A program made the translations under genes and the position numbers. From IMG/VR virus record IMGVR_UViG_3300035181_001974: a DNA stretch of 64,000 nt. One strand, given 5' to 3'. The first letter of the stretch is position 1; each line of letters starts with the position of its first letter. Source of the DNA: a virus. The notes beneath the pieces are model-generated. The model was not told the origin of the DNA. It saw only the letters and a list, made by a program, of their open reading frames with translations, and did not search any database. Below, piece by piece: positions 8,451-61,419 of this stretch.

Positions 8451-9338
8451 ATGAGCGAGATGAAAAAGTTCCCGCGCACAAGACACATTCGTGGTTCGCG
8501 GTTCCAACATGGGGACGACGACCTCGAGGCCGTCCCGTGGGAGGAGCTCGCCGGCAAACACCTCCTCATCGAGGAGAAGATCGACGGTGCTAACGTCGGC
8601 ATTTCCTTCGTCGACGGTGAGATGAAGCTACAGTCGCGTGGGCACTACCTTCATGGAGGTCCCCGTGAAAAGCAGTTCGAACTGTTGAAACAGTGGGCAG
8701 CGACACATGAGATGGGTTTGTACGAGATGCTTGGCGAACGCTACGTGATGTACGGTGAGTGGATGTTCGCCTGTCACACGATCTGGTACGACAGGCTACC
8801 ACACTACTTCATGGAGTTCGACGTCTTCGACAGGGAGACCGACACGTTCCTGTCGACACCCGCCCGTGACGAGTTGCTGAGACGCACGTCTGCACCCGTC
8901 AGGATCGTGCCTGTGCGGGTGATCGCAACTGGCCTTGTGTCGGGCGTCGAAGAGCTGAAGTCTATGATCGGCCCGTCTGCGTTTGTGAGCGAGGGAAAGT
9001 CACGTCACAACGACTCGTTGCTGTCGTGCGAGTCTTCGTGGTACGATGCTGTTGTTGTGTGTAACGTCCTGGGTAAGAGGGGACACTACGTGTTCCAGCA
9101 GGACGAGTGGATCGCCAGATGTGAAGAGCTGCGAAAGAAGTACTACGTCGGTCCCACGATGGAGGGCCTCTACGTCAAGTGGGAGAAGGACGGTATCGTG
9201 AAGGGCCGCTACAAGTTCGTGCGTGACGACTTCGTCAGCCACATCGCGGGGCAAGACGAACACTGGCACGACAGACCCATCTTGCAGAACGGCCTGATTC
9301 CAGGTGCGCTGGAGCACATGTTCAGGAGCGACACGTGA
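8451..9338 (+). CDS. rnl: ATP-dependent RNA ligase (Rnl2-like)
   Basis: ligase motif I KxDG in LLIEEKIDGANVGISF; motif IV-like YGEWM; size ~295 aa. Confidence 0.75.
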   Translation: MSEMKKFPRTRHIRGSRFQHGDDDLEAVPWEELAGKHLLIEEKIDGANVGISFVDGEMKLQSRGHYLHGGPREKQFELLKQWAATHEMGLYEMLGERYVMYGEWMFACHTIWYDRLPHYFMEFDVFDRETDTFLSTPARDELLRRTSAPVRIVPVRVIATGLVSGVEELKSMIGPSAFVSEGKSRHNDSLLSCESSWYDAVVVCNVLGKRGHYVFQQDEWIARCEELRKKYYVGPTMEGLYVKWEKDGIVKGRYKFVRDDFVSHIAGQDEHWHDRPILQNGLIPGALEHMFRSDT

Positions 9339-9912: not shown

Positions 9913-10761
9913 ATGCCGAAGCTTGCATGGGCCACTGACGTTCACCTTGATTTCATCGCTGAAAGACCGGGGGCTCTTGTGGCTTTTGGCCAGGCGCTGA
10001 TCAAGGACAATCCTGACGCCGTCCTCCTGACGGGTGACATCTCGATCGCTCGTGATCTGACGTATCACTTGTCGGCCGTGGAGAAGGTCGTCGGCCGTCC
10101 GGTTTACTACGTTTTGGGCAATCACGATTACTACGGTGGCACTACCGAGACAGTCCGCAAGGAGATGAAGGATGTCAGCAATATGTCGCAGTTTCTGCGA
10201 TACCTGCCGACCACGCCTTACGTGGCGCTCTCGCCGGCGACGGCATTGGTGGGCCACGATGGATGGTACGATGCCCTCTACGGCGATGCTCGAAACTCGC
10301 GGTTCATCATGATGGACTGGCACCGGATCGGTGACTTCGTCAGCGAGGGCGCGATGGGCGCAGCGTCGATGTACGGCGGCCGTTCACCCAACTATAGCAA
10401 GATCATCTCGGTCTCGCGGAAGTTGGCTCACGAGGGGGTGACCCACGTGATGAACGGCATCAAGGCAGCTGCTCGCTACCACACGGTCATCCTGGTGGCA
10501 ACGCACTTCCCACCTTTCGAGGAATCGCATATCTTCGAGGGGCAGAAGGGCGACGCGGCGCACCAGCCTTGGTACACGTCGAAGATGATGGGCGACATGT
10601 TGAGGCAGGCCGCGCAGGCCTACCCGAAGGTTCGCTTTGAGGTCTTCGCGGGTCACACCCACGGGAAAGCAGATCTGCAGATTACGAACAACATGTTTGT
10701 TCACGTGGGCGGCGCTGAATACTACCAACCGCAGCTTCAGACGGTCATCAACGTCCCGTGA
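9913..10761 (+). CDS. calcineurin-like metallophosphoesterase
   Basis: motifs LLTGDISIARDL (GD), VLGNHDYY (GNHD), ATHFPPF (GH-type). Confidence 0.7.
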   Translation: MPKLAWATDVHLDFIAERPGALVAFGQALIKDNPDAVLLTGDISIARDLTYHLSAVEKVVGRPVYYVLGNHDYYGGTTETVRKEMKDVSNMSQFLRYLPTTPYVALSPATALVGHDGWYDALYGDARNSRFIMMDWHRIGDFVSEGAMGAASMYGGRSPNYSKIISVSRKLAHEGVTHVMNGIKAAARYHTVILVATHFPPFEESHIFEGQKGDAAHQPWYTSKMMGDMLRQAAQAYPKVRFEVFAGHTHGKADLQITNNMFVHVGGAEYYQPQLQTVINVP

Positions 10762-11015
10762 GCTACACCTTCAGGCACAGTCACACGGCCTCGGGGAAGC
10801 AGCACGTCTTCCAAGGCCCAGGACTGAGTCAGCACGGTTCGAGCGTTCATCTGCAACAACACAACAACGAATGGGCTATCAAGTGCCTGAACGACGATAA
10901 GGATCGTCATGATCTTGCGGCGGACGTCATCTGTCACATGTTGGACCATGCTTACGAGGCCGGCCGTGAGGTGGCCCGGTTCGAGATTAGAGAGACATTG
11001 AGGATCATGAAATGA
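10758..11015 (+). CDS. hypothetical protein
   Basis: 85-aa ORF overlapping neighbours by 4 nt. Confidence 0.3.
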   Translation: MSYTFRHSHTASGKQHVFQGPGLSQHGSSVHLQQHNNEWAIKCLNDDKDRHDLAADVICHMLDHAYEAGREVARFEIRETLRIMK

Positions 11016-11803
11016 AAATCGAAAAGTTCACGGACGGCCTAGCAATTCAAGCCGACTGTACCGACCTCGTGACCGTCCTGGCGACGGTCGAGGCCACCGG
11101 GAAGGTCGGTTTGATCATTGCGGATCCGCCATACGGAAACGTGGTCCGTGAAAAGTGGGACCGCGTTCAACAATCCGATAAGGCATTTGCATCGTGGATG
11201 ATCGATTGGACGCTGCGTTGGACGACCCACGCACTTCACGATGGGGGCGCGTTCTACGTCTGGGGTGGCATTGGGCAGCCGAGCTTCAGGCCGTTCATGC
11301 GCTACCTGTGCGACGTGGAGATCAAGGACCAATTTGAGCTGGCGAACCTGATCACCTGGAAGAAGCGCCGTGCCTACGGCGTGCAGTGGAACTACCTTTT
11401 TACTCGCGAGGAGCTTGCTTACTTCGTCAAGGGTCCCATGAAGAAGCCTAGAAAGTTCCATGTGCCTCTCTTGGATGAGAAGCGTGGTTATGCGGGCTAC
11501 AATGCGAAGTATCCGGCCAAAAGCGAGTTCTATCGACGCTCCAACGTCTGGACTGACATCACAGAATTGATGCGGGGCAAGGTCCACCCGACGGAGAAGG
11601 TTCAACGCCTTCACGAGGTCATGATTGAGGTTCACACAGACCCAGGCGAGTGGATCATCGATCCCTTCGCGGGCTCAGGCGTCACGGGCTTCGCGGCGCG
11701 AAAGCTCGGTCGTAGGTTCGCGTTGGTCGAAAGTGACCCAACGATCTTTGATGACATGGTGAAACGCCTCCGTGTAAACGAGCCACCGCCCGTTGTATCC
11801 TGA
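11012..11803 (+). CDS. DNA methyltransferase, beta-class (N6-adenine or N4-cytosine)
   Basis: motif IV IIADPPYGN precedes motif I IIDPFAGSGVTGFAA (IV then I order = beta class). Confidence 0.75.
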   Translation: MKIEKFTDGLAIQADCTDLVTVLATVEATGKVGLIIADPPYGNVVREKWDRVQQSDKAFASWMIDWTLRWTTHALHDGGAFYVWGGIGQPSFRPFMRYLCDVEIKDQFELANLITWKKRRAYGVQWNYLFTREELAYFVKGPMKKPRKFHVPLLDEKRGYAGYNAKYPAKSEFYRRSNVWTDITELMRGKVHPTEKVQRLHEVMIEVHTDPGEWIIDPFAGSGVTGFAARKLGRRFALVESDPTIFDDMVKRLRVNEPPPVVS

Positions 11804-12531: not shown

Positions 12532-13314
12532 GTGAACAGTGTTCATCTGGCCGATGCCTTTTCTGTGATCCAGTCGCTGCCCGAGGAGAGCATCGATCTG
12601 GTCTATACCGATCCACCTTTTGGAACCGGCACCGTCCAGCGGGCTCAAAGACGCGTGGGCGATCAAGTATTCCCGGAAATGGGCTATAGTGACAGGTTTG
12701 AGGATTACGTGGGTTTTCTCGTGCCTCATCTGGCGGCCCTACACAGGGTCTTGAAACCGACAGGAACTCTCTACTTGCACCTGGACCCTCGTTGGGTTCA
12801 TTATGCCAAGGTGGAGCTCGATAAGATCTTCACGCGGGATAACTTCCTGAACGAGGTCATCTGGGCCTATGATTTCGGAGGCCGCGGCAAGGATCGCTGG
12901 CCCGCTAAACATGATACGATCCTGGTCTATGCCAAGGAACGTGGCAAGCACGTCTTCAATTGGAACGACATCGATCGCATTCCGTACATGGCACCGGGGC
13001 TTCAGAAGGACCCGGCACGGGCCGCTGCTGGAAAGGTGCCGACCGACGTGTGGTGGATGTCGATCGTGGGAACCGCGTCCAAGGAACGCACGGGTTATCC
13101 AAATCAGAAACCCGTCAAGTTGATCGAGCGAGCGATTCTGGCGTCTTCACCGCCGGAAGGAACAGTCCTCGATCCTTTCTGCGGATCGGGAACAACTGCC
13201 GTGGCGAGCGCGGGTCTTGGTCGTCAGTTCGTAGTAGGTGATGCCAACCCGCAGGCAATCGCAATAACAAAGGCTCGGCTAGATGCGTTGAGTGTCCACT
13301 ATATTTGTACTTAA
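12532..13314 (+). CDS. DNA methyltransferase, beta-class (N6-adenine or N4-cytosine)
   Basis: motif IV VYTDPPFGTG then motif I VLDPFCGSGTTAVAS. Confidence 0.75.
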   Translation: MNSVHLADAFSVIQSLPEESIDLVYTDPPFGTGTVQRAQRRVGDQVFPEMGYSDRFEDYVGFLVPHLAALHRVLKPTGTLYLHLDPRWVHYAKVELDKIFTRDNFLNEVIWAYDFGGRGKDRWPAKHDTILVYAKERGKHVFNWNDIDRIPYMAPGLQKDPARAAAGKVPTDVWWMSIVGTASKERTGYPNQKPVKLIERAILASSPPEGTVLDPFCGSGTTAVASAGLGRQFVVGDANPQAIAITKARLDALSVHYICT

Positions 13315-19204: not shown

Positions 19205-20227
19205 ATGAAGACTGTCCTCGTCACGGGAGCCGCTGGTTTTCTGGGTTCGCACTTGATGCTACATCACTTGAGGGCGGGTGACAAGGTCCTCGGCCTCGAC
19301 AATTTCTGTTCGTCGAAGCCGGAGTCGATTCAGGTCGATGAGATCAAGAAGTTTCCGCTGGCGACGTTGATGTACTGCGATATCGCTGACGTCCATGGAG
19401 ACAGTCGCTTTAGTCGCGTGATTCACGATTACGACACCGGGTCGATGCACTCGGTACGCTTCGACATCATCTACAACTTCGCCTGCCCAGCATCGCCGCC
19501 CATCTACCAGCGCATGCCCGTGGAGACCATGATGACCTGTACGCTAGGCGTCCAGAACGTCCTGGAACTGGCGGCATCGCATGGATCGATCGTGGTCCAC
19601 GCTTCGACTTCTGAGGTCTATGGTGATCCCGAGAGTTCGCCGCAGGTCGAGTCATACCGAGGTCGCGTCAACTCCTACGGGCCCAGAGCCTGTTACGACG
19701 AGGGAAAACGTGCGGCAGAGGCCCTGTGCTATGACTACCTACATACCCACGGTGTCGACGCTCGCATGGTCCGGATCTTCAACACCTACGGTCCGCACAT
19801 GGACCCATACGATGGCCGGGTCGTCAGCAATTTCATCGTCCAGGCCTTGAAGGGCGAGAAGTTGACGATCTACGGTGACGGTCAACAGACACGTAGCTTT
19901 TGTTACGTGGACGACCTGATCAAAGGCATTGTGACCTTGGGCGATCTGGGCAACAACCCGCGGATGCCCATCAACCTCGGCAACCCGCACGAGTTCACGA
20001 TGAATCAGTTGGCGAAGGAGGTCATTCACCAAATCTACGGTGGGCGCGAGGCACCTCACCGCGATGTGGCCCGTTGGTTTGACTACAAACCGCTGCCTGT
20101 CGATGACCCGACGCAGCGTCGGCCCGACATCACCCAAGCCCAGAATCGTCTAGGGTGGGAGCCCAAGGTGCAGCTCGCAGAAGGCCTCAAACGTTCCATC
20201 GATTACTTCCGGAAGGTCATCGCCTAG
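19205..20227 (+). CDS. uxs: UDP-glucuronate decarboxylase (UDP-xylose synthase, UXS)
   Basis: Rossmann VLVTGAAGFLGSHL; UXS-diagnostic blocks ASTSEVYGDPE, GPRACYDEGKR, RIFNTYGP, DGRVVSNFIVQALKGEKLTIYGDGQQTRSFCYVDDL, INLGNPHEFT, RRPDITQAQNRLGWEP, YFRK. Confidence 0.85.
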   Translation: MKTVLVTGAAGFLGSHLMLHHLRAGDKVLGLDNFCSSKPESIQVDEIKKFPLATLMYCDIADVHGDSRFSRVIHDYDTGSMHSVRFDIIYNFACPASPPIYQRMPVETMMTCTLGVQNVLELAASHGSIVVHASTSEVYGDPESSPQVESYRGRVNSYGPRACYDEGKRAAEALCYDYLHTHGVDARMVRIFNTYGPHMDPYDGRVVSNFIVQALKGEKLTIYGDGQQTRSFCYVDDLIKGIVTLGDLGNNPRMPINLGNPHEFTMNQLAKEVIHQIYGGREAPHRDVARWFDYKPLPVDDPTQRRPDITQAQNRLGWEPKVQLAEGLKRSIDYFRKVIA

Positions 20228-20676: not shown

Positions 20677-22362
20677 TTGTCGGTTTGCACAACCACACGG
20701 GCTTCTCGTAATGCGCCCTTCGATGGTTTGGGCTATCCCGATGAACACTTCAAGTGGTGCATGGAGAACGGGCTCGATGGCCATGCCATCACCGAGCACG
20801 GGAACATGAACTCCTATGCCCACGCTCAACTGTGGGTCGAGGAGTGGGCCAAGGCCAATAAGGGAAAGTCGTTCAAGTACATTCCCGGCGTCGAGGCGTA
20901 CTACCATCCCGACCTGGAGCAATGGAAGAAGGACGTCGAACTCGCAGAGCAGGCGAAGGGAGACAGGAGGGTTGCGGCCAAGCTTGCTAAGGAGCAGGAA
21001 AAGCTGCAGACCAAGATCATCGCCACCATCGATGAAAATGATGAGACTGAGGACATTGAGATGTCCAACGCCTTGACTGTCGAAAACGAGGAAGAGTCCA
21101 AATCGACCAAACACTTCAATCCCGTCAACCGACGGCATCACCTAGTCATTCTGCCCAAGAACCAGAAGGGCCTGTTGGCGATCTTCGCAGCATGTTCGAA
21201 GGGATTCTTGAAGGGCTTCTACAAGTTCCCGCGCATTGACCATGCTGTCCTCAAAGAGGCAGCCAAAGGCGGCGACATCATCGTCAGCAGCGCTTGTATC
21301 GGCGGCATGCCGGCGTACTCCATATTCCAGGAAATCCAACAGTACAAGTTTGACGAGCTCGACGCACGGTTGCTCAGTGACCCTGTGCTGCTCGAGAAAT
21401 GCGTTGTCGCGGTGGGCAATACCTACCAGCACATGGTCGATGCAGTCGGCGAAGGAAACTACTTCCTCGAGCTGCAGTTCAATCGCCTACCGGCGCAGAA
21501 CCTCGTCAACCGCGCGATCCTGGAGTTCGCTCGTCGCAATGGGCTCAACAAGCAGCTGATCGTCACCGGCGATGCTCACTACTATAATCCCGATCGTTGG
21601 AAGGACCGTGAGCTCTACAAGCGCCTGGGTTGGATGAACTACCAGGAGATCAATCCTGACGCGATTCCGAAGTCGAAGGATGAGCTGAAGTGTGAGCTCT
21701 ATCCGAAGAACGCCCAACAGATGTGGGATGAGTACCAGCGCTCCAAGGAAGGCACCGACTGGTATGACGATGAAGTCGTCTGTGACGCCATTGAGCGGAC
21801 TCACGATATCGCACACAGTGTCATCGGGGAGATTCCACCCGATCGTTCGCCCAAGTTTCCGACGAGGTTGTTGGTGCCCGAAGGCACGACCTCGTTCAAT
21901 CACCTCATCTCGCTTTGTAAGGTGGGCATGGTGAAGCGTGGTCTTCAAGACAAGCCAGAGTATATCGCGCGCCTCAAGGAGGAACTCGGCGTCATTAAGG
22001 TGATGAAAAACTCTGACTACTTCATTTCCTACCAGAAGATCATGGAGCTGGCACGCAATGTGTGCCTTACCGGCCCAGCCCGCGGTTGTTTCGTTCCTGA
22101 GACGCGGGTTCTAATGGCTGACGGCATGCATGCTCCCATTGGCACCATCAAGGTGGGCGACGTTATCAAGGATGCATATGGTGTTGATCAGATGGTGACT
22201 CAGATCTTCAGGTATCAGGTTGATGAGGAGCTGCTAGAACTCGAGTTTGATGACGGTAAGAAGATCAGGTGCACCAAGGAGCATAAGTTTCTGACGAAGA
22301 ATCGTGGGTGGATTGAAGCACAACACTTGACTGAAGATGATGACCTAATCGAGGTTGAATGA
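20677..22362 (+). CDS. dnaE: DnaE N-terminal extein (PHP + palm start) fused to N-intein 1; true start at 20618 in another frame (frameshift)
   Basis: frame A 20618..20710 encodes MTQQGKEDAKGSSVRVPRRFVGLHNHTGFS* (PHP motif), frame of ORF continues NAPFDGLGYPDEH...; N-intein 1 = 22087..22359 (CFVPETRVLMADG...LIEVE). Confidence 0.8.
   Translation: MSVCTTTRASRNAPFDGLGYPDEHFKWCMENGLDGHAITEHGNMNSYAHAQLWVEEWAKANKGKSFKYIPGVEAYYHPDLEQWKKDVELAEQAKGDRRVAAKLAKEQEKLQTKIIATIDENDETEDIEMSNALTVENEEESKSTKHFNPVNRRHHLVILPKNQKGLLAIFAACSKGFLKGFYKFPRIDHAVLKEAAKGGDIIVSSACIGGMPAYSIFQEIQQYKFDELDARLLSDPVLLEKCVVAVGNTYQHMVDAVGEGNYFLELQFNRLPAQNLVNRAILEFARRNGLNKQLIVTGDAHYYNPDRWKDRELYKRLGWMNYQEINPDAIPKSKDELKCELYPKNAQQMWDEYQRSKEGTDWYDDEVVCDAIERTHDIAHSVIGEIPPDRSPKFPTRLLVPEGTTSFNHLISLCKVGMVKRGLQDKPEYIARLKEELGVIKVMKNSDYFISYQKIMELARNVCLTGPARGCFVPETRVLMADGMHAPIGTIKVGDVIKDAYGVDQMVTQIFRYQVDEELLELEFDDGKKIRCTKEHKFLTKNRGWIEAQHLTEDDDLIEVE
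22087..22359 (+). other. N-intein 1 (91 aa), followed by stop
   Basis: C1 after GPARG; block A CFVPETRVLMADG..GTIKVGDVI; block B TKEHKFLT. Confidence 0.8.
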
Positions 22363-22446
22363 AACTCAACTAAGTTTACCTGATCCTCGTCAAATGTCTA
22401 TTAGACAGGGATCTCAAGGCTTACATGAAGAGAGCGAACGCATATC

Positions 22447-22944
22447 ATGAAGCTCAGAAGTAAGACTGTCGTACCGTATAAGGGTGAGGTCGTAGACCTG
22501 TGTGTGGAAAACAGCCACACTTACAACGTGGAAGGTATTGCAGTCCACAATTCGGGCGGTGGCTCTCTGGTCGCCTACGTCCTATACATCACCGACTTGG
22601 ACCCGTTGTTCTGGGACCTGCCTTTCGCGCGATTCCTTAGCGTTCACAGGTGTCTGTCGCCAGACACAAAGGTATTGATGTCAGATGGTTCGTCGTCCGC
22701 GCTTCGAGACGTGAAAGTCGGTGACAGCGTTGTCTCACAGGATGGCTCACACCGTAAAGTTACGTTCACCATGACCACAAAACATGAGAAGACGTACCGC
22801 GTGAAGGTGAATGGTACTACGTTCACGTGTTCTGAAAATCATGTGTGGTTGACAGTGGGTCCTGATGGACAACCTGTGAAGAAGTATACATCTGAGCTGT
22901 CGACGAGTGACGAGCTGTACACGTACCACTATGAGCATCATTGA
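22447..22944 (+). CDS. dnaE: C-intein 1 (22447..22551) + extein 2 (22552..22650) + N-intein 2 (22651..22941)
   Basis: [35 protein letters not shown]|[33 protein letters not shown]|[13 protein letters not shown]... Confidence 0.8.
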
Positions 22945-23872
22945 GAAACAGTGTAAACACTGTGGTATTATGTTTCAGTTCAACTATGAGCCCAACTGCA
23001 AGGGTTCTGGTAGTAGGCTCCATCGCCCGTACTGCACTGATGAGTGTGCCGTCGCTCACAGGAAGCTGATGTCACACGCTCCCATGCCCTCGAGGCTTGT
23101 GAAGACGTGCGTCGAGTACGGCGATGAGTTCTACGTTCCAAAGTGTCACAACAACAGAAAACTATGTTCGAATGCGTGCAGGCACAAGTACACTGCGAAA
23201 GCGCTGACAAAGAATGAGCTCCGTACACTGACATGTGTACAGTGTCTAGGCACTTTCTCAACGAAGAACGTCAATCGCAGGTTCTGTTCACCCAAATGTT
23301 TCGCTGCATCGAGGTTTGACCGCCACACGTTGGTATGCGAAGTTTGTAGCGAACCGATCGTCACCAAGAAGAGCTACGTGCCGCGGTTCTGTTCCAAACG
23401 GTGCACCCGCGAGGCACAGTCACGTGATATGGTTGCTTCACATGTGAACGGACGCTCGTGTTTTCGTTCCGACATCCTAAACAGCCCGTACTTCAAGAGC
23501 TCGTTCGAAGCCGACTACTACAGATATTGCTTGCACCTCGGTAAGATGCCATTCTATGAACATAGGTCTTTCCATGTTGTCATCGATGGCAAAGAGAAGT
23601 GTTACACTCCAGACTTTTGGTTCAGTGATGAGGACCGATACGTGGAGTTGAAAGGTGTGCGAGAAGGCAAATCGCGTTTCTCAAAGTTGCTTAACTCAAA
23701 CGCACGTTCACGGGAAGTCGTTGTGGCGTCTGGTCAGCGCATCGACGTCGTGTACATGAATGACTTCTATGGTGAACTTCGTCGACAAGGTTTGTACCAT
23801 ACGATTGCCAATCTAGAGCACAGGGACTATGCAGGAACCCAACATCTCATCAGCAAGCACGGCCAAAATTGA
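22907..23872 (+). CDS. free-standing homing endonuclease (multi CxxC zinc-ribbon + PD-(D/E)xK core) between halves of intein 2
   Basis: six or more CxxC pairs; C-terminal [17 protein letters not shown] = PD..(D/E)xK motif; nested between N- and C-intein 2. Confidence 0.65.
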
Positions 23873-24566
23873 AGCTATCGAGGTTGTCGATGAAAGTGTA
23901 GAACTCATCGACATCGAGGTCGAAGGCCAGCATACGTTTTGGGTGTCCAACAACGATAGCGATTGGGTGCTGACACATAACTCTGGTGCTCCTGATATCG
24001 ACTGCGTCCACGAGGACCATCTTGTCGTCATGACAGACGGCACTCATAAGCGAGCTGTTGACATCATTGTCGGCGACGTCGTCCTGGGAGGCGATGGAAT
24101 GCCACACGCAGTAACTGCGACCTATGCTAGAAATTTGCGGCCATTCGAGGACGCTGTCTGGGTCAGAGTTAGGGCCAATGATGGTACGTTGGGCCACATT
24201 TTGGTGGTGCCCGGTCACAAATTTGTCAGAGCTGACGGCGTCATCGTGTACTGCCGCGACCTTAAGGTCGGAGATGAATTGATGGCATCATGCGGCAGCG
24301 TTGAGGTCGTATCGATCGAGCACGGTGGTTGGGGCTCTTCCAACGCTAGATACGTCGACCTGACTGTTGAAGACGATCACAGATTCCACGTGGTACCGTT
24401 CAATACGTCCATTCTAAGTGGAGGTGATCCATCACATGACGTCGGTTATTGCATGGGCGTCATTCCTGGCACGTTCCTTGCGTGTGGCGAAGGAGACAAT
24501 TTTTGCAGCGATTGGTGCGCGTCTAAGAGAAGAACAGACCACAGCGAGCGCAACTATGAAATTTGA
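23829..24566 (+). CDS. dnaE: C-intein 2 (to 23981) + extein 3 SGAPDID (23982..24002) + N-part of intein 3 (24003..24563)
   Basis: ...VELIDIEVEGQHTFWVSNNDSDWVLTHN|SGAPDID|CVHEDHLVVMTDGTHKRAVDIIVGDVV...PGHKFV...RYVDLTVEDDHRFHVV then a non-extein-like tail. Confidence 0.7.
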   Translation: MQEPNISSASTAKIEAIEVVDESVELIDIEVEGQHTFWVSNNDSDWVLTHNSGAPDIDCVHEDHLVVMTDGTHKRAVDIIVGDVVLGGDGMPHAVTATYARNLRPFEDAVWVRVRANDGTLGHILVVPGHKFVRADGVIVYCRDLKVGDELMASCGSVEVVSIEHGGWGSSNARYVDLTVEDDHRFHVVPFNTSILSGGDPSHDVGYCMGVIPGTFLACGEGDNFCSDWCASKRRTDHSERNYEI

Positions 24567-24868
24567 GCTGGAGTTGGGACCGTGTCCGAGCAACGTTGAT
24601 GCGGTGCAGCTTACAGACAACGGCGATTCTGCCGAGCAGATGATGTGATAGTGTCTGGCCTGGAAAGAATAGCTCAGACGAGAGCTGCAGAAAATCCTGA
24701 ATTTCAAGATTGTCAGGTCAAACTGCGCGTTAAAGGGTTTGAGCACGATTTGGCCCCCATACTATGGGGCTACGTCGTGCGATGACGCCGACGCCGACGA
24801 GCGCACAATTGACGCCATCTTCTGGCTCAAAGAAAATGCGTCCTCAAAGTTTGACGATGACATTAGCG

Positions 24869-26602
24869 TCACGCTGTGACGTCTAAGACGTAGCGAGAGT
24901 TGCTACAGCCATAGATGCGATAAACGCCGGCAGCCTCCGCTACCTGTTTTTCTGTTAGACCTTGCTTCTTGTTGGCTCGGTACTTGAACCTGTCGTAACG
25001 ATGCATGAAGTCAGTCCACCAGAAGCGAGCGACTGTGGTACCGTTGAACTTCATGCCTGAGGTGGCATAACCGTTTCCTCCCAAGCGATTGTCTGAGTAA
25101 GACATCAACCTCGCTGCATTGTTTTCTCTTGCTATAGCTTTTGCCTTTGATAGCAATTTTGACACCCCGCCTCGTACATGTGTGCCAAGCTTGAAGCACA
25201 GGCGAGCGATCTCAATCGTCGTTCTGTCTGCCCCATTTCGTGCCCACCTAAGGCTGCAGGCGCCTACGATTTCGCCCGATGAGGTTACCAATCGCACGGC
25301 AAATTGGGCCCTCACGTGACCGTCGAGGTGGCACTGATTGATGAATTCTCGAACTTCTTCGGGCTCGCAGCGTTCTGCTTTCAACTTACGCGCATCGACT
25401 TTGGTAGAAAACCCAAGGCGATGGCGCAACATGCTTTCGATTATCGGTCGTTTGTCGCGCCACTCATCCTCAAATAACGTGAAAAGCGATACGCCGGCTT
25501 TGAGGGACAGCAATCTCTTCTTTTCCGCGTGATCGTGCTCAAATCTATTGGCGGCCTCGCTGTGCCAGTATAGGCCATTGCACTCGATGGCAAACATGCG
25601 CGATGGAATGAGTATGTCGAGCTCCATTCCGCCGAGCGTCTTACGATCGCTAAGGACTGCGTCAGGTGCCAGCGTCTGGATAAATGCGTAGACGTCCTGT
25701 TGCCACCTGCTCGTTTTGTCTGACCAAGGCGGAAAGCAGGTGGGACACTTGGCCTCGTTGTTGAACACTGCGCCAACGCAACGCTCAAATATTGTTGAAC
25801 ATATCGTGCATTCGATGCGCGCTTTGGTGACAGTATCGACATATTCGTCAATGAGTTTAAGCTGCTTTTCTTTGAGGCGTTTTTGTACCTCGTCGTGCGT
25901 CAGCAACTTTGCCTTGCGCATTTTTTCAAGCGTTACGTCGCTAAAGAATCGTCCTTTCAACGAAGCGCTGATCTTCTTACTGCGAGATTCAATGATGCTA
26001 GACGTATCCTTTGTCAGGCCAAGTGACCAGCCGCTGTGCGTTGCATAATACCTCCGCAGGCTGTCGCTGATTTTTGCCGCCTTTTGTTTAAGGCTTTCGT
26101 TGTTTTCCTTTGTCTTGTCGGAGTTGTGGTGACCGTGTTCCTTGTAGTGAGCTCGCATGTTTGCAGCACTGGCTGACATGCGTTCGTCATTGTCTTTCGT
26201 CAGGCCTTTGTTCCATGACGAGGTGCCCTTGGACGCGTATGCGTGTTTTCGGCTACAACGTGGACACCGTTCGGGGTATCCTTTTTCTTGATCGATGAAC
26301 CTGACCCAGTCGCAACAATCGATGCACGTCTTCCTGCACCCTGGGTACCTTGTTTCATACACAACGACGGGTGATTTTTGGTGCGTTTTTGTGCAGTGCA
26401 ATGTCAACTTACGCCCGCTGTCATATGACGCCTCACACCACGGACACGCGTAAGTTGACACCTGTTTGGGAGGCCTGGCGTCTTCTCGCCTGTGTCGTGC
26501 CTCGTGGATCTTCAATGCTCGTAGCGTTTCGTGGTTTCGACCACAACGAGCGCATGTAAATTCAACTGTAGTTGAGTTAGGATTCATGTGATGGTCGTTC
26601 AT
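24869..26602 (-). CDS. homing endonuclease: C2H2 zinc fingers + NUMOD3 + Vsr-like (DUF559/EDxHD-type) nuclease + C-terminal GNAT-like domain; inserted antisense inside intein 3
   Basis: FTCARCGRNHETLRALKIHEARH and YACPWCEASY..HCTKTH fingers; NUMOD3-like GHHNSDKTKENNESLKQKAAKIS; nuclease core ELDILIPSRMFAIECNGLYWHSE...D; C-terminal RGGVSKLL...RFWWTD shared with 27288..29087. Confidence 0.7.
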   Translation of the reverse strand: MNDHHMNPNSTTVEFTCARCGRNHETLRALKIHEARHRREDARPPKQVSTYACPWCEASYDSGRKLTLHCTKTHQKSPVVVYETRYPGCRKTCIDCCDWVRFIDQEKGYPERCPRCSRKHAYASKGTSSWNKGLTKDNDERMSASAANMRAHYKEHGHHNSDKTKENNESLKQKAAKISDSLRRYYATHSGWSLGLTKDTSSIIESRSKKISASLKGRFFSDVTLEKMRKAKLLTHDEVQKRLKEKQLKLIDEYVDTVTKARIECTICSTIFERCVGAVFNNEAKCPTCFPPWSDKTSRWQQDVYAFIQTLAPDAVLSDRKTLGGMELDILIPSRMFAIECNGLYWHSEAANRFEHDHAEKKRLLSLKAGVSLFTLFEDEWRDKRPIIESMLRHRLGFSTKVDARKLKAERCEPEEVREFINQCHLDGHVRAQFAVRLVTSSGEIVGACSLRWARNGADRTTIEIARLCFKLGTHVRGGVSKLLSKAKAIARENNAARLMSYSDNRLGGNGYATSGMKFNGTTVARFWWTDFMHRYDRFKYRANKKQGLTEKQVAEAAGVYRIYGCSNSRYVLDVTA

Positions 26603-27445
26603 TCATTTTTGGCGTCCAACAAGAGCGTCGTTGTTCACAACACCGATCTTGCCAGGCGAGATGAGGTTCTTGATGAACTTCGAAACTTTTTTGGGTGGGA
26701 AAACGTCGTTCCCATCAGCAATTATAACTGTTTCAAACTAAAAACGCTTGTAAAGGATATCGGCAAGTTCTACGGCATCCCATTCGAGGAGACCAACGCT
26801 GCCACGCGGACCGTCGAGGACGAGGTCCGTAAGGCGACGATGAAGGAAGGCGACGACAAGAATCTGTTCGTCTTGACCTACGATGAGGCCATGGCCTTCC
26901 ACTGCAGGGCTCCTAAGGGCCCGGAGTCGAAGTCCATCTGCCAGGGCTGTAGCCCAGAGTGTAAGCAGCCGGTCAGCCCGTCGTTTCGCGGCTTCATTGA
27001 GAAGTACCCGGTCGTCGCCGAGTCGATCAAGATCCTCTTCAAGCAGAATCGTAGTCTCGGTCGTCACGCGGGTGGTGTGCTGATTGCAGACGATTTGCCC
27101 AACAAGATGCCTTTGGTGACGTCCAAAGGCAAGGCCGGCGTCCGCGAGCCACAGTCACCTTGGGTCGAGGGCGTAAATTATAAACACCTTGAGAAGATCG
27201 GAGAGTTCATCAAGTACGACCTCCTAGGTCTAGAAACGATGCGGCTCATCGAGCGCGCCATCGAGCTCATCATCAAAAAGGAACGACATGAAAGAGGGTG
27301 GTTTGAGATCCAACTCGACGATGGAACGACACGAGGCGTCTACGGCGACCAACGAATCGTCACCAGCAACAGGGGCACCATCCTTGCGAGGGAGCTCGGG
27401 CCCGGCGATGACATCGTGTCCTTCGAGGTGCCCACAGTGCAATGA
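26588..27445 (+). CDS. dnaE: very short C-part of intein 3 (at most 22 codons, ..HSFLASNKSVVVHN) + extein 4 (DnaE palm/fingers segment)
   Basis: VVVHN|TDLARRDEVLDELRNFFGWENVVPISNY..KTLVKDIGKFYGIPFEE aligns to E. coli [48 protein letters not shown]; later RHAGGVLIA, KYDLLGLETMRLIERAIELI; in-frame stop 3 codons upstream of the first listed start. Confidence 0.75.
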   Translation: MMVVHSFLASNKSVVVHNTDLARRDEVLDELRNFFGWENVVPISNYNCFKLKTLVKDIGKFYGIPFEETNAATRTVEDEVRKATMKEGDDKNLFVLTYDEAMAFHCRAPKGPESKSICQGCSPECKQPVSPSFRGFIEKYPVVAESIKILFKQNRSLGRHAGGVLIADDLPNKMPLVTSKGKAGVREPQSPWVEGVNYKHLEKIGEFIKYDLLGLETMRLIERAIELIIKKERHERGWFEIQLDDGTTRGVYGDQRIVTSNRGTILARELGPGDDIVSFEVPTVQ

Positions 27446-29087
27446 TCCATTGCGAAAAGCTAGCCTAAATTCGCTCCGCGCACATCTCCTTAAAAAGCAC
27501 GGGCTCAATGCGGAGGCTGCGTACCTTCTTTTTCGAGAGCACCCTGGACCGTGCGTTCAGTGTTCAGGGCCGGTCAAGTTCATGACCTTTCAAACGGGAT
27601 ATGAACGTCTCTGTGGAGTTTGTAGCAAGAAGAACTCTCAAGTAAGAGGTGCGCTTAGCCGGAAATCAAAATCATTGCCTGCATGGAACAAGGGGCTGTC
27701 AGAAACAACGTCTGAATCGGTTCGAAGGGCCGCACAAGGTTGTCGTGATTTCATCAAAAAACACGGGCACTGGAGAACAGGACAAACTAAAGAAAATAAT
27801 GAATCTATCACAAGAGCTGCGCATAACATCTCTCGAGCATTGACTGAAAAATGGCAAGTAGAAAAACACTGGACGCAGCACGGTCAGACGTCAGAAACTG
27901 ACGATAGGATCAAACGGCGATCAGAACGGATCGGCGAAGGCGTTCGCTTGAATCATTGGTCTCGGAACGCTAATTCTGAAGATATCAAACGTTCGATCAT
28001 CGAGACTAGAAAACGCCTTATCGAGAACGGCACTAACTCTCCTTTTCGGTTGTCTCTCGAAGAGGTCGAACGGCGAGTTGATGCACTGCGGTCGAGGTGG
28101 AACATCGAAAAATTTGAGTTTGCTGGATACTCAACACCGGTGCATGTGACATGCGTCAGTTGTAACGTACCTGATATTGTTCCCTTTAACGTCCTTTACA
28201 AGGGAAAGGTGTGTTCAACGTGCTACCCGGCTAATTTCTCTCGCTGGCATCGTGAGGTGTTCGATTTCTTCGTCAAGCTCGATTCGAACGCCATCGCCAA
28301 CGACAGACAGTCAATCGCGCCTTATGAGCTGGACATCGTGTCAGGTAACGGAAGGATTGCCATCGAGTGCAACGGTGTCTATTGGCACAGTGAGGCGACC
28401 GGTACTCCACCATCGTATCACCAAGACAAGTCGACTCGCGCTCTTGAGCGTGGTGTGTCGTTGCTACATATCTTCGACGATGAATGGCACCATGATGTAA
28501 AGAAAAACATCATCAAAAGCATGATCAGGGTAAAGCTTGGTCTTGCTACTCGCGTGATGGCACGAAAGCTACATCTTCGCAGCGGTCGTCCAGCCATCAC
28601 CGCTCAGTTCATGGCGAACAATCACCTCGATGGAAACACTCCTTCGTCGCATTCGTTCTGGCTAGAGGACATTGCTGGAAACATTATTTGTGCATTGACA
28701 TTGCGAAAACCGCACCAGCAGACTAAGTGGGGATCTAAGACAATTGAATTGGCGCGGGTTTCAACGGCCCGCGATACCATCGTCGTTGGAGGCATGTCGC
28801 GGTTGATCAACGCTGCCAGGGATTGGTCACGTGAGCATGGTTACCAAAAAATGATCACATACCGTGACATGAGGTTGGGTGGCACTGGCCGGGCGTATGA
28901 ACTATCTGGTTTTAGATTTGATCACATGACGCAGCCTAGGTTTTGGTGGACGGACGGACAAAATCGTATCGATAGATTTGCTGTCAGGGCGATTCCGGGG
29001 ATCGCATCACAAGAAGAGATGGCGATGGAACACAGGCTTTTTAAGATCTTTGGTTGCTCCAACGCGGTGTACGTTATGGACCTGTGA
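27411..29087 (+). CDS. homing endonuclease (paralog of 24869..26602) inserted directly in the dnaE extein; ORF track start 27288 is probably an overlap artefact
   Basis: Zn-finger/NUMOD3-like N-terminus, Vsr-like core ELDIVSGNGRIAIECNGVYWHSE, C-terminal GGMSRLI...RFWWTD...FGCSNAVYVMDL domain. Confidence 0.65.
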   Translation, partial: TSCPSRCPQCNDPLRKASLNSLRAHLLKKHGLNAEAAYLLFREHPGPCVQCSGPVKFMTFQTGYERLCGVCSKKNSQVRGALSRKSKSLPAWNKGLSETTSESVRRAAQGCRDFIKKHGHWRTGQTKENNESITRAAHNISRALTEKWQVEKHWTQHGQTSETDDRIKRRSERIGEGVRLNHWSRNANSEDIKRSIIETRKRLIENGTNSPFRLSLEEVERRVDALRSRWNIEKFEFAGYSTPVHVTCVSCNVPDIVPFNVLYKGKVCSTCYPANFSRWHREVFDFFVKLDSNAIANDRQSIAPYELDIVSGNGRIAIECNGVYWHSEATGTPPSYHQDKSTRALERGVSLLHIFDDEWHHDVKKNIIKSMIRVKLGLATRVMARKLHLRSGRPAITAQFMANNHLDGNTPSSHSFWLEDIAGNIICALTLRKPHQQTKWGSKTIELARVSTARDTIVVGGMSRLINAARDWSREHGYQKMITYRDMRLGGTGRAYELSGFRFDHMTQPRFWWTDGQNRIDRFAVRAIPGIASQEEMAMEHRLFKIFGCSNAVYVMDL

Positions 29088-29105
29088 AAGTACCTTTACA
29101 AAGAC

Positions 29106-29582
29106 ATGGCAAAAGTCGTTGCTAACGTTGACGCACATACAAATGCGGTATCATTCAATGACATCAAGACCTGGTTCGAGCAGCACATGCACCCGGCCGT
29201 CATTGATTTCACCGATCCCAAACCTTACGAGGTCTACGAGAAAGGCAAGTGGGCAGGCATCTTCCAGTGCGTCGACCAGGACACGGCAGTGCTGATGGGC
29301 GATGACTCGTACAAGTTGATCAAGGACGTCCATGTCGGTGACGAGGTGACGGTCTTCGATGAAGTCAAGCAGCAGTTCACCACATCAGTCGTCGACGTCG
29401 TTTACGACCAAGGACCCAAGGAGTGCATCGAGCTCGTGTTCGACGACGGCAAGAAGCTTGTCTGCACCGCTGATCATCCCATCTTGACGAAGAATCGCGG
29501 GTGGGTTGAGGCACAGCACCTAACCGAAGACGACGAGTTGATTGGGTCTAGCAGTGGTTACGAAGCTCGTGGATTGACGTGA
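29106..29582 (+). CDS. dnaE: extein 5 (29106..29267) + N-intein 4 (29268..29579)
   Basis: AVIDFTDPKPYEVYEKGKWAGIFQ|CVDQDTAVLMGDDSYKLIKDVHVGDEV...; N-intein 4 tail (LVFDDGKKLVCTADHPILTKNRGWVEAQHLTEDDELI) is paralogous to the N-intein 1 tail. Confidence 0.75.
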   Translation: MAKVVANVDAHTNAVSFNDIKTWFEQHMHPAVIDFTDPKPYEVYEKGKWAGIFQCVDQDTAVLMGDDSYKLIKDVHVGDEVTVFDEVKQQFTTSVVDVVYDQGPKECIELVFDDGKKLVCTADHPILTKNRGWVEAQHLTEDDELIGSSSGYEARGLT

Positions 29583-29666
29583 GGCGGGCGTTTTGGTCGC
29601 AGGTTTCGCCGCGACCGTGGCCATGTCGCCTTACAGAGACGCAACAGGCCCACGACTCCGCAACAT

Positions 29667-30056
29667 GTGATTGTACGGACGCGCTCCGCTCATCGTAGCG
29701 CCCCTTTGTACTTTCTGCACTCAGCGGGCAACGGGAACGGAAAGAATGGCGTCGTCGACCTGTATGACAACTGGCGTCATTGCATGGACGAGGGCTTCAG
29801 CGAGGAGGAGATCAGGATCCAGCTCACAAGAGAGGCGTACATGATCTTCCATCGTCAATGACCGACGTTGGAGCTCTTTAAGCGGGTGTACGTGGAAGTC
29901 AAGGGCTGGTGGCGTGATGATGCTAGGGAGAAGTTTGACGCATTCGTAACGTTGCATCCGACGCTCAAGTGTGCACTTGTCAGTGGATATGACCTACAGT
30001 TGCTAGAAAAGAAGGAGACGACGCTTGAAGCTTGTGTCATCACGCAGCGTGGGTAA
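29667..30056 (+). pseudogene. decayed homing-endonuclease relic (PD-(D/E)xK core) between halves of intein 4, with in-frame TGA at 29859..29861
   Basis: ...MIFHRQ*PTLELFKRVYVEVKGWWRDDAREKFDAF resembles [15 protein letters not shown] of HEG 22907; far too short for a functional HE. Confidence 0.5.
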
Positions 30057-30624
30057 GCGCCACGTCTACGACATCGAGGTGCGAAATCATCATAATTTCG
30101 TCGCTAACGACGTCGTTGTTCACAATTGCACGGGCCAGGGCGCTCAGCGACTCTTTGTCAAAGGCAAGCCCAAGAGCATCATCGACATCGCGACGCTGAC
30201 CAGCATCTATCGCCCGGGTCCCTTGGCCGCCAAAGTCGATCGACTGTACTTGGAGGCGAAGAATGACGGCAAGGAGTTGGAGTGGGGCGATCACCGCGTC
30301 AACGACATCCTGAAGAAGACATACTCGTGTTTGACGGGTGACACACATATCCTTACTGAGCAAGGTGAGGTTCCCATTAGACAAATCGTTGAACAAGGAA
30401 TGGTGGGAACTAAGCTTCCGTCATACAATGAAATGACGAAGACCGTCGAGATGGACGAAGTTGTCGCTGTCGCCTCAAACGGCGTACGTGACATCATCGA
30501 GGTTGAGCTGGAGGGTGGAGAAACTTTGTCTTTGACTGAAGATCACCTTGTCATGACGCCTCGTGGTTGGGTGCAAGCAGGTGAACTGACGTCTGAAGAC
30601 GAGATTTTGGGAATGAAGTACTGA
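30025..30624 (+). CDS. dnaE: C-intein 4 (30025..30126) + extein 6 (30127..30327) + N-intein 5 (30328..30621)
   Basis: MKLVSSRSVGKRHVYDIEVRNHHNFVANDVVVHN|CTGQG..IATLTSIYRPGPLAAKVDRLY...KKTYS|CLTGDTHILTEQGEVP...; IYRPGPL matches DnaE ALFRPGPL. Confidence 0.8.
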   Translation: MKLVSSRSVGKRHVYDIEVRNHHNFVANDVVVHNCTGQGAQRLFVKGKPKSIIDIATLTSIYRPGPLAAKVDRLYLEAKNDGKELEWGDHRVNDILKKTYSCLTGDTHILTEQGEVPIRQIVEQGMVGTKLPSYNEMTKTVEMDEVVAVASNGVRDIIEVELEGGETLSLTEDHLVMTPRGWVQAGELTSEDEILGMKY

Positions 30625-30630
30625 AACCAG

Positions 30631-30830
30631 GCTACTTCGTCGTGCCATCACTCAACCTCATCATCGAGTACGACGGCGACTATTGGCACAGTAACCCAGC
30701 GAAGCATGAACTAACACCTGCGATGAAGAAGCAATTTAGGCTTGATCAATTATGGACGCTTGCCACAAGAACTTGAGGCTTCACGGTGTACCGCGTCTGG
30801 GAGTCTGATGCCTTGAACTATCACCTCAAA
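30631..30830 (+). pseudogene. Vsr-like (DUF559/EDxHD-type) nuclease-core relic with in-frame stop, between halves of intein 5
   Basis: YFVVPSLNLIIEYDGDYWHSNPAKHE...RLDQLWTLATRT*GFTVYRVWESD matches only the catalytic core of HEGs 24869/27411/31990; no DNA-binding region. Confidence 0.5.
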
Positions 30831-30847
30831 TTGAGGACAATTTAGAC

Positions 30848-31093
30848 ATGAAGATTGATGATTTTGAAGAGGAGTTGCTTACGTCGTTCAAGAACTTTAT
30901 CAACACGATGAAGTCACATACGGCATTTGGAAAGCGTGATGATCTCACGTATGCCGACTGGTTCGACACATTTCGAGCTTATGAAGAGGTCGGAAATGAT
31001 ATGGAGCTCGAATACCATGGTCAACGTGTTTTGAGTGTTGATGGACCAGTGTGCCAACTCTGCGCATCATCATTGAACATGAAAGAAAAATGA
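30848..31093 (+). CDS. hypothetical small protein inside intein 5 gap
   Basis: 81-aa ORF. Confidence 0.35.
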   Translation: MKIDDFEEELLTSFKNFINTMKSHTAFGKRDDLTYADWFDTFRAYEEVGNDMELEYHGQRVLSVDGPVCQLCASSLNMKEK

Positions 31094-31094
31094 T

Positions 31095-31412
31095 ATGAGC
31101 GCAGATCTTTACACTAGCGAGATCGATGACGATGTTTATGGATCTCTAACGCTAGAGATGAACGTTCATGGGAATTTGCGAATCATTGCATATGATCCTG
31201 GGACTAGAGATTTGGTAGGTTGCTGTCAGTTTCCACCCTCGCATGAGGGTTTCAACGAAGCCCAACGATTGATCAACGCTTTGCAAGAATGGATGCGTCA
31301 TGTGGGGGAAAATCTCAACCCTTGCCGAGTCGTTCTAGGCAGTGATGCTTTGTCGCGCTCAATGTCATTACACATTGTTTGTCAGACTCATCGTGAAACG
31401 GAGCGTAAGTGA
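31095..31412 (+). CDS. hypothetical small protein inside intein 5 gap
   Basis: 105-aa ORF, start 1 nt after previous stop. Confidence 0.35.
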   Translation: MSADLYTSEIDDDVYGSLTLEMNVHGNLRIIAYDPGTRDLVGCCQFPPSHEGFNEAQRLINALQEWMRHVGENLNPCRVVLGSDALSRSMSLHIVCQTHRETERK

Positions 31413-33039: not shown

Positions 33040-33244
33040 AATCGCACTGAATGACATTGCCCAACGCATGGGTCTGAGTCCGATCGAACTGTTACGGGCC
33101 GCGGCACGTTACCGACGCAAAAGCGAAACGAAGGTTGAACTCCAGCCGACTGACGAGTACATTGAAGAAGAGTATGCTAAAGCAATGCTTGATGAACCGA
33201 ACGCAGGAGCGATCGAAGACCTGTTGAAGGACCTGCTCACATGA
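33020..33244 (+). CDS. hypothetical small protein
   Basis: 74-aa ORF between HEG6 and C-intein 6. Confidence 0.3.
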   Translation: MKRPPFEIALNDIAQRMGLSPIELLRAAARYRRKSETKVELQPTDEYIEEEYAKAMLDEPNAGAIEDLLKDLLT

Positions 33245-34371: not shown

Positions 34372-34564
34372 ACATAAAACCCATGTACACCTACGAACAG
34401 TTGATCGAGAAGATAGTCCGTGCCAAGGTCTCGCTGGCAACCACCGCGGGCACTCGGACTCGTGCCCAGCTGAATGCGATCACGAGGGCTACGCTCCGTG
34501 CAACTGTGGGGCCACGGCACACAACAGTCATATCTCTGCGTCTTTGGAGGACCTGAAGCTATGA

Positions 34565-45303: not shown

Positions 45304-45306
45304 GCA

Positions 45307-61384: not shown

Positions 61385-61419
61385 GTCAAAATCTCCGGAT
61401 CCAGTGTAGGATAACTAGC

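Follow-up and report, generated by a model that had tools for sequence, protein, structure and literature searches.

Results

The UDP-xylose synthase gene

The subject of this study is a group of genes, located in a stretch of viral DNA of 64,000 nucleotides (IMG/VR record IMGVR_UViG_3300035181_001974; the whole stretch is hereafter called the window), which might provide for glycosylation of cytosine in phage DNA. The group consists of a uridine diphosphate (UDP)-xylose synthase (UXS) gene and a module encoding a P-loop kinase, a glycosyltransferase, a nucleotide-sugar 4-epimerase and a dCMP hydroxymethylase. An earlier note on this DNA had proposed that 5-hydroxymethyldeoxycytidine (hm-dC) is decorated here with a pentose, and the open reading frames (ORFs) which it named are all present where it placed them. 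The window (GC content ~55%) covers 64 kb of a ~309-kb contig (JGI 3300036715, Logan SRR11723144) of a jumbo phage which has not been cultivated; a protein identical to the product of 40548–41885 was found on contigs of JGI and Logan assemblies of up to 309 kb.

The ORF at 19205–20227 (plus strand) encodes a protein of 340 amino acids. In a phmmer search of PDB it matched human UXS1 with E = 4.5e-83 (282 bits), while the next family, UDP-glucose 4-epimerase, was found at 2e-32 (116 bits), and UAXS and ArnA scored 81 and 59 bits, respectively. Its identity to the pSymB-encoded Uxs of Sinorhizobium meliloti is 52% over 341 amino acids. Pfam assigns the protein to the extended short-chain dehydrogenase/reductase (SDR) superfamily only, and NCBIfam gave no model above cut-off, none of the returned matches being UXS-specific. 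In human UXS1, the SDR triad is composed of Thr118, Tyr147 and Lys151, and Ser119, Glu120 and Arg277 are UXS-specific residues, lacking in epimerases (Eixelsberger et al., PMC3438964). The phage protein has equivalents of all six: T135, Y164 and K168 make up the triad, and S136, E137 and R305 are kept, the last of them within DDPTQRRPD, which aligns to DDPQKRKPD of the human enzyme. The NAD site GxxGxxG reads GAAGFLG (residues 8–14), and an insertion of ~18 amino acids follows the first beta-alpha unit. The similarity to the human and rhizobial enzymes and the six residues bear out the UXS assignment of the earlier note and, judged by its sequence, this ORF encodes a genuine UXS, predicted to be able to turn UDP-glucuronate into UDP-xylose.

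The position of the UXS gene is fixed in ~24 IMG/VR contigs, in the order HNH, a 383-amino-acid protein, a Dps-like protein, UXS and the alpha subunit of DNA polymerase III (PolIII alpha), and its catalytic motifs are retained in 28 of 32. Among the phage records listed, only ten have a UXS-like gene with at least 42% identity; six of these come from metagenomes or faeces and lack annotation, and the four isolates comprise three cyanophages and a Pseudomonas phage. UXS-like genes are rare in isolated phages but not in IMG/VR, in which 280 matching stretches were found.

The hydroxymethylase gene

The 219-residue product of the ORF at 44185–44844 (plus strand, TTG start) is a dCMP hydroxymethylase of the T4 gp42 type (PDB 1b5e family, E = 8.3e-76), 52–56% identical to gp42 of T4-like phages. 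The protein was aligned with ThyA of Escherichia coli and with the ThyA homologues of T4 and WG01 from GenBank. In this alignment, the window protein has the catalytic Cys148 and, at positions of E. coli ThyA, L143 and N177 changed to D with D169 kept (signature D/C/D/D, as in T4 gp42). Aspartate at the position of N177 is responsible for dCMP specificity, and an acidic residue at L143 for access of water. The D169N change (E. coli ThyA numbering) is diagnostic of 5-hydroxy-dCMP synthases (PMC13326640). In the region of D169 the window protein reads MRSNDV, with Asp kept, while the homologue from the RB69-like Dhakavirus WG01, ~25% identical to it, has Asn. An RB69-type 5-hydroxycytosine synthase was ruled out by the absence of D169N and by this low identity, compared with that to gp42. 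Because aspartates occupy positions 169, 177 and 143 as in T4 gp42, and the similarity to the WG01 type is so much lower, we regard the ORF as encoding a true hydroxymethylase, and we are confident that the phage makes 5-hydroxymethyl-dCMP (5-hm-dCMP) and hm-dC.

The D/C/D/D signature occurs in all 30 relatives with a linked glycosyltransferase gene, across two lineages of ThyA homologues, one gp42-like (219–271 amino acids) and the other of 280–360 amino acids, ~30% identical to each other. The longer type substitutes at the same position in loci L009, L015, L019, L020, L023, L024, L027, L028, L032–L034 and L037. Since the signature is also present in 51 of the 52 ThyA homologues of a wider, polymerase-anchored set, the whole phage group appears to make hm-dC. 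The ThyA homologue of L243 (16264–17166) has Cys at the position of D169.

The linked module

The protein encoded at 40548–41885 (plus strand, 445 amino acids) had no sequence match in Pfam, NCBIfam, PHROG or PDB, and no tblastn match in isolated phages; 415 homologues, 57–67% identical, were found on large metagenomic contigs. Its AlphaFold2 model, built with 40 homologues (predicted local distance difference test, pLDDT, 91.9; predicted template modelling score, pTM, 0.88), is a complete GT-B fold, in which a cleft separates two Rossmann-like domains, and resembles GT4-like enzymes. The structural matches include 6kih, 2gej and a BshA structure, which were reported as top matches for DNA arabinosyltransferases of RB69 and DLP3. 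The donor-binding EX7E motif is not present in strict form in the C-terminal domain, where the equivalent position is occupied by D350-x-YGGT-xx-R-E359, which is invariant. According to the model, the enzyme uses a nucleotide-sugar; the fold does not reveal DNA as the acceptor. Taking its genomic context and fold together, we consider it fairly probable that this GT-B enzyme glycosylates hm-dC, i.e. that it is an hm-dC DNA glycosyltransferase.

The ORF at 39045–39584 (plus strand) encodes a P-loop nucleotide kinase of thymidylate-kinase-like type, with the Walker A motif GPDRCGKT at residues 10–17. It matches phrog_761 ('thymidylate kinase') at E = 9.6e-10, AAA_28 at 24.9 bits, which is under the cut-off, and, weakly (E = 5e-6), the 'thymidylate kinase' adjoining the 5-hydroxycytosine (5hoC) synthase of phage WG01. 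The genes of the kinase and the glycosyltransferase are neighbours in 29 of the 30 related loci. As a separate, canonical thymidylate kinase (Tmk) is encoded at 2181–2762, beside ThyX, the second one may reasonably be proposed to phosphorylate hm-dCMP.

The putative 4-epimerase is encoded at 43040–43999 (plus strand, 319 amino acids). It is an NAD-dependent extended SDR of the WbpP/WbgU-like lineage (Pfam Epimerase, 6e-51), whose PDB matches were 10ke (9e-54), 6dnt (1e-50), WbgU (9e-49), WbpP (3e-44) and E. coli GalE (1e-27). The architecture of an extended SDR is present over the full length, with S116-S118, Y141-x3-K145 and GAAGFIG, and no signature residues of UXS or dehydratases were found. 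Ser/Thr residues occur at the positions of UXS Glu120 and Arg277, a pattern noted for UDP-glucuronic acid (UDP-GlcA) epimerases (PMC3438964). By these sequence features the protein is assigned to nucleotide-sugar 4-epimerases of the GalE superfamily. It contains P78, T184 and T275 in place of WbpP G102, A209 and S306, the replacements being conserved in the clade, and T275, at the gatekeeper position of GalE Y299 and WbpP S306, is invariant there. At these three positions, WbpP-type enzymes have small residues. Since P78, T184 and T275 stand in place of these, the phage protein should be no plain N-acetylhexosamine (HexNAc) epimerase.

Two further ORFs lie among those of the module. At 39586–40269 (plus strand) a protein of 227 amino acids with the fold of class I S-adenosylmethionine (SAM)-dependent methyltransferases is encoded; its Pfam Methyltransf_23 match (E = 0.0037) is below cut-off, and PF13489 is matched by ~20 of its 94 homologues. 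The AlphaFold2 model (pLDDT 88.6) retrieved only class I SAM methyltransferases among the top 50 Foldseek matches, including the sugar-nucleotide methyltransferases TylM1, KijD1 and CalS10, and motif I reads DFGCGQG (residues 41–47). Of the 30 related loci, 5 encode this protein with at least 68% identity and 4 others a weakly similar one (29–34%); it is an accessory gene product of a subset of relatives. Between the glycosyltransferase and the epimerase, an acidic protein of 264 amino acids (pI 4.7) is encoded at 42213–43007 (plus strand); it matches no family in Pfam or PHROG and was found in only 3 related loci (41–47% identity); its membership in the module is uncertain. As regards the earlier note, its descriptions of the products of 40548–41885, 39586–40269, 39045–39584 and the thymidylate-synthase homologue as GT-B-like, SAM methyltransferase, P-loop kinase and gp42-like hydroxymethylase, respectively, are all in agreement with the models, motifs and matches presented above.

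Gene linkage in relatives

Besides the 30 loci found with the glycosyltransferase, loci of relatives were collected from IMG/VR by means of a PolIII alignment, a single-protein PolIII query having given 3 loci; the polymerase matches in IMG/VR number more than 600. Contigs from ENA, JGI and IMG/VR share the gene order kinase, glycosyltransferase, epimerase and hydroxymethylase, which in two ENA contigs (227 kb and 341 kb) reads kinase, glycosyltransferase, epimerase, ThyA homologue, thymidine kinase, CCA enzyme, dCMP deaminase and superoxide dismutase. Between the genes of the epimerase and the ThyA homologue there is either a gap of 10 bp or, as in L005, an overlap of 4 bp. Among the 30 IMG/VR loci with the glycosyltransferase, 28 contain the epimerase, directly upstream of the hydroxymethylase, and every adequately covered one has a ThyA homologue with the hydroxymethylase signature within ~5 kb. 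Adjacency of epimerase and hydroxymethylase genes was observed in more than 40 distinct phages, despite the exchange of ThyA lineages.

To count co-occurrence of UXS and the glycosyltransferase, near-identical polymerases were collapsed, which left 41 distinct phages with both regions observable. Both genes were present in 13 of these phages, the glycosyltransferase without UXS in 4, UXS without the glycosyltransferase in 1, and neither in 23. The four relatives of the second kind have no UXS at its usual site; in L223, the flanking genes are present there, and the glycosyltransferase and epimerase are kept. The glycosyltransferase is therefore not strictly dependent on a phage UXS. Similarly, as the epimerase is found in relatives devoid of UXS, it does not need UDP-xylose, and its wide distribution suggests that it can work on a donor supplied by the host.

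In the relatives with neither UXS nor the glycosyltransferase, the slot between kinase and epimerase holds a 341-amino-acid protein of no family and a different SDR, closest to the UDP-glucose 4-epimerase of Thermotoga maritima (4zrm, E = 1e-45). Profile comparison of the 341-amino-acid protein with the window glycosyltransferase family revealed no similarity. The presence of this alternative pair in the same slot suggests a swappable donor/transferase cassette, of which the L200 type (for example, L200 15393–18201, IMG/VR 3300022752_005671) may be an alternative version.

Other features of the window

The module is surrounded by genes of replication and nucleotide metabolism (PolIII alpha, thymidine kinase, dCMP deaminase), without structural or lysis genes, and its own genes are short and their products soluble-looking. 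ThyX, the canonical thymidylate kinase, thymidine kinase and dCMP deaminase are encoded at 1408–2172, 2181–2762, 46414–46989 and 48526–48984, respectively; given these four, the phage has a full route of dTTP supply beside that of hm-dC.

The PolIII alpha gene (DnaE-type, 20677–34440) extends over ~13 kb. It is broken by Hint/intein segments (20677–22362, the C-terminal part; 22447–22944, 23829–24566, 29106–29582 and 30025–30624) and contains homing-endonuclease-like ORFs of 577 and 599 amino acids (24869–26602, minus strand, and 27288–29087). In L004 and L005 it is one intact ORF of 1179–1205 amino acids. On the minus strand, at 35035–38094, a protein of 1019 amino acids with faint matches to LRV repeats is encoded; several relatives also have it, with 45–64% identity, between the genes of the polymerase and the kinase.

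Downstream of the hydroxymethylase, two adjoining ORFs (45247–45852 and 45856–46401; the second matches Pfam Proteasome at 4e-6) encode proteasome/HslV-like Ntn-hydrolase subunits, and this pair is kept at that place in relatives. A gene for an enzyme of the CCA-adding/poly(A) polymerase family is split (47005–47457 and 47654–48529) and forms a single ORF of 380–402 amino acids in L004 and L005. An RNA-repair-like set at 4721–5677, 5764–6768, 8451–9338 and 9913–10761 comprises a RlaP-family nucleotidyltransferase, a polynucleotide kinase-phosphatase, an RNA ligase and a metallophosphoesterase. Two DNA methyltransferases of the N6/N4 type are encoded at 11012–11803 and 12532–13314 (Pfam N6_N4_Mtase, 7.5e-27 and 1.4e-43); the phage DNA may thus bear base methylation besides the modified cytosine.

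Discussion

The linkage of kinase, glycosyltransferase, epimerase and hydroxymethylase genes in dozens of contigs argues for decoration of hm-dC with a sugar. The explanation that we favour, though as a whole it is somewhat less likely than not to hold, is that deoxycytidine of this phage is replaced by hm-dC which is then glycosylated, a pentose being the leading sugar; it is derived from sequence, fold and gene context. According to this scheme, the gp42-type enzyme would convert dCMP to 5-hm-dCMP, the putative hm-dCMP kinase would phosphorylate the product, and the phage polymerase would incorporate hm-dCTP. After replication, the GT-B enzyme would transfer a sugar from a UDP-sugar to the 5-CH2OH group in DNA. 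The donor pool of the window phage and of those nearest to it would be re-tailored: UXS would turn host UDP-GlcA into UDP-xylose, and the epimerase may then turn UDP-xylose into UDP-L-arabinose, so that the adduct would most likely be pentosyl-hm-dC (+132 Da). In the subset of relatives which have the SAM methyltransferase, this enzyme may methylate the sugar or its nucleotide precursor.

The nature of the sugar is the most tentative element of the scheme. It is not derivable from sequence, and xylose and L-arabinose are the leading candidates; that the sugar is a pentose at all seems to us possible, though doubtful. For the epimerase, the candidate substrates are UDP-Xyl/Ara, UDP-Glc/Gal, UDP-HexNAc and UDP-GlcA/GalA, as judged from its sequence.

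A number of observations weigh against this scheme. The epimerase shares only 31% identity with the GalE-type protein encoded immediately after Uxs in S. meliloti, which we take to be SmUxe (SMb20459), and ~40% with UDP-HexNAc (GlcNAc/GalNAc) 4-epimerases of the WbgU/WbpP type. Orthology to SmUxe was therefore ruled out and, of the GalE/Uxe designation given in the earlier note, the 4-epimerase-type SDR stands while the Uxe type does not. GalE-family enzymes are often promiscuous, and the phage enzyme may act on UDP-Xyl/UDP-L-Ara despite the failed orthology. The nearest cellular homologues of the epimerase are at most 44% identical to it, and UXS was found within 6 kb in only 3 of the 80 nearest. 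The pair of epimerase and hydroxymethylase occurs also in the 23 distinct relatives in which UXS and this glycosyltransferase are both lacking. The UXS gene is separated from that of the glycosyltransferase by 20 kb in the window and by 8.5 kb in L004, with the polymerase gene between them; ~13 kb of the 20-kb gap is accounted for by expansion of the polymerase gene with inteins and homing endonucleases. The association of UXS with the glycosyltransferase among the 41 phages (Fisher's exact p = 1.6e-6) is given by a statistic that ignores phylogeny, and it is largely due to a single subclade: where PolIII is at least 62% identical, every phage carries both genes, and outside of this subclade the counts are 2 (both genes), 4 (glycosyltransferase only), 1 (UXS only) and 23 (neither). 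Among the scanned ORFs of the window (64 kb of ~309 kb) there is no MazG- or gp56-like dCTPase, and no credible match to motifs of UDP-glucose dehydrogenase (Ugd) or sugar-1-phosphate nucleotidyltransferases was found in the window; as it contains no Ugd motif, UDP-GlcA has to be supplied by the host or by way of the 245 kb lying outside the window. Finally, no cultured relative was found among the 50,697 deposited phage genomes, which gave neither a nucleotide match to the window nor a close DNA or protein relative of the region, the glycosyltransferase or the polymerase, the DnaE-type polymerase sharing no more than 26% identity with those of isolates. A NUDIX hydrolase encoded at 61378–61884 (Pfam, 1.3e-19) is the sole candidate in the window for a dCTP/dNTP pyrophosphatase which might keep dC out of the DNA.

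Alternatively, hm-dC could be glycosylated by a hexose, HexNAc or uronic acid, the epimerase making the 4-epimer of an abundant host donor (UDP-Gal from UDP-Glc, UDP-GalNAc from UDP-GlcNAc or UDP-GalA from UDP-GlcA), with UXS giving a second, optional sugar or standing outside the DNA pathway. In favour of this, the nearest solved relatives of the epimerase are the UDP-GlcNAc/GalNAc 4-epimerases 6dnt, WbgU and WbpP (E from 1e-50 to 3e-44), its Ser/Thr residues at the positions of Glu120 and Arg277 follow the pattern of UDP-GlcA epimerases (PMC3438964), and it is the epimerase rather than UXS that is physically coupled to the hydroxymethylase, in a pair far more widespread than UXS (the 23 phages mentioned above, plus the 4 with the glycosyltransferase and no UXS). 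Nevertheless, a plain HexNAc epimerase does not agree with the clade-conserved P78, T184 and T275, the UXS gene has stayed intact and conserved and is enriched together with the window glycosyltransferase family, and only a single glycosyltransferase was recognised in the module, so we consider a non-pentose sugar with such a role of UXS rather unlikely.

We find it improbable that UXS, the epimerase and the glycosyltransferase act off DNA, on virion or other proteins or on envelope polysaccharides of the host, like auxiliary metabolic genes of many large phages, their position being explained by shared early expression. In favour of such a role, large phages and giant viruses often carry nucleotide-sugar SDRs and GT4-like enzymes that have nothing to do with DNA modification, more than 200 further viral contigs contain UXS-like genes in settings of other kinds, and the fold match of the glycosyltransferase is generic and the protein acidic. 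Such a role is difficult to reconcile with the adjacency of epimerase and hydroxymethylase genes, maintained through the ThyA-lineage swap and accompanied by translational overlap, with the constant proximity of a hydroxymethylase-signature ThyA homologue to the glycosyltransferase, and with neighbours belonging to nucleotide metabolism and replication rather than to structure or lysis. UXS could also be a host-takeover enzyme which drains UDP-glucuronate needed for capsule, exopolysaccharide or aminoarabinose (Ara4N) of lipid A, while the glycosyltransferase uses a host donor, e.g. UDP-glucose as in T4. The polymerase gene lying between UXS and the module and the four relatives that keep the glycosyltransferase without UXS would fit this possibility, and T4 glucosyltransferases are known to need no phage-made donor. 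We consider it very improbable, as it leaves unexplained both the near-confinement of UXS to carriers of the glycosyltransferase (13 versus 1) and the module's constant 4-epimerase of its own, and no precedent was found in the literature searched.

The proposed synthesis of glycosylated hm-dC would work like the glucosyl-hmC system of T4, composed of gp42 dCMP hydroxymethylase, gp1 dNMP kinase, gp56 dCTPase and alpha- and beta-glucosyltransferases. However, the window phage is unrelated to T4 and has a DnaE-type polymerase, its glycosyltransferase shows no sequence similarity to the T4 alpha- or beta-glucosyltransferase, its kinase is thymidylate-kinase-like rather than gp1-like, and no dCTPase was seen among the scanned window ORFs, while the donor-tailoring UXS and epimerase are lacking in T4. 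The gene layout of kinase, glycosyltransferase and ThyA homologue is a hallmark of cytosine-glycosylation clusters (PMC13326640) and resembles that of RB69, DLP3 and RL38J1. The systems of RB69, DLP3 and HY126 are of the arabinosyl-5-hydroxycytosine kind (PMC13326640). The statement in the earlier note that RB69 arabinosylates hm-C proved incorrect: RB69 and DLP3 carry arabinosyl-5-hydroxycytosine, in RB69 with arabinofuranose, their ThyA homologues are flavin-dependent 5-hydroxy-dCMP synthases, and RB69 obtains UDP-arabinofuranose from ribulose-5-phosphate, through arabinose-5-phosphate and arabinofuranose-1-phosphate, by means of an isomerase, a kinase/uridylyltransferase and a phosphatase (PMC13326640). 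Thus, the base is hmC here, where D169 is kept, and 5hoC in those phages, and the donor would arise here by decarboxylation of UDP-GlcA (pyranose series) instead of the ribulose-5-phosphate route. In the hexosyl-cytosine cluster of Rhizobium phage RL38J1 (Pootjesviridae), a kinase, a divergent GT-B enzyme and a ThyA homologue adjoin and are accompanied by UDP-galactopyranose mutase (PMC13326640). A phage-encoded enzyme interconverting UDP-sugars accompanies these three in both cases, but RL38J1 combines 5-hydroxycytosine with a mutase, and the window phage hydroxymethylcytosine with a decarboxylase and a 4-epimerase.

In S. meliloti, Uxs followed by Uxe produces UDP-L-arabinose (Gu et al. 2011, as cited in PMC6024577 and PMC8196924). 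The two-step logic of UXS and 4-epimerase and the similarity of UXS to the pSymB enzyme are common to both, whereas the phage epimerase belongs to the WbpP/WbgU-like branch and the two phage genes are not adjacent. Another parallel is Shewanella phage Thanatos, a T4-like phage in which a pentose, putatively xylose, is present on cytosine and UDP-xylose is made by the pyrophosphorylase TH1_063 (PMC12838424), that is, by a different enzyme than UXS; its ThyA homologue makes 5hoC (PMC13326640). The Uxs/Uxe route was speculated for RB69 in 2018 and later superseded by the ribulose-5-phosphate route, and beyond this speculation the literature searched contained no published link of a phage UXS or xylose to DNA modification or hmC. 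Of the phage-encoded UDP-pentose pathway feeding an hm-C glycosyltransferase, as put forward in the earlier note, the linked GT-B enzyme, kinase, epimerase and hydroxymethylase and a real and enriched UXS have thus been substantiated, but the epimerase is no Uxe and persists without UXS.

Hypermodified cytosines make the DNA of phages resistant to restriction enzymes, CRISPR nucleases and glycosylases, and are a source of new enzymes for epigenetic sequencing and DNA labelling. The sugars known so far are glucose on hmC in T-even phages, and arabinofuranose and hexoses on 5-hydroxycytosine in RB69, DLP3 and RL38J1. A broader picture, which we put forward as a speculation less likely to hold than to fail, is that a large group of uncultivated jumbo phages from the environment substitutes hydroxymethylcytosine for cytosine and decorates it by means of a swappable cassette of transferases and sugar-nucleotide enzymes, and that the subclade of the window uses a pyranose pentose (giving xylosyl- or L-arabinosyl-hm-dC, possibly methylated) by virtue of the phage UXS. 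If true, pentosyl-hmC made by way of a phage UXS would be a new base with a new donor pathway, neither of them described for any virus, and glycosylation of hmC would be widespread and diverse among environmental jumbo phages, a group without cultured representatives.

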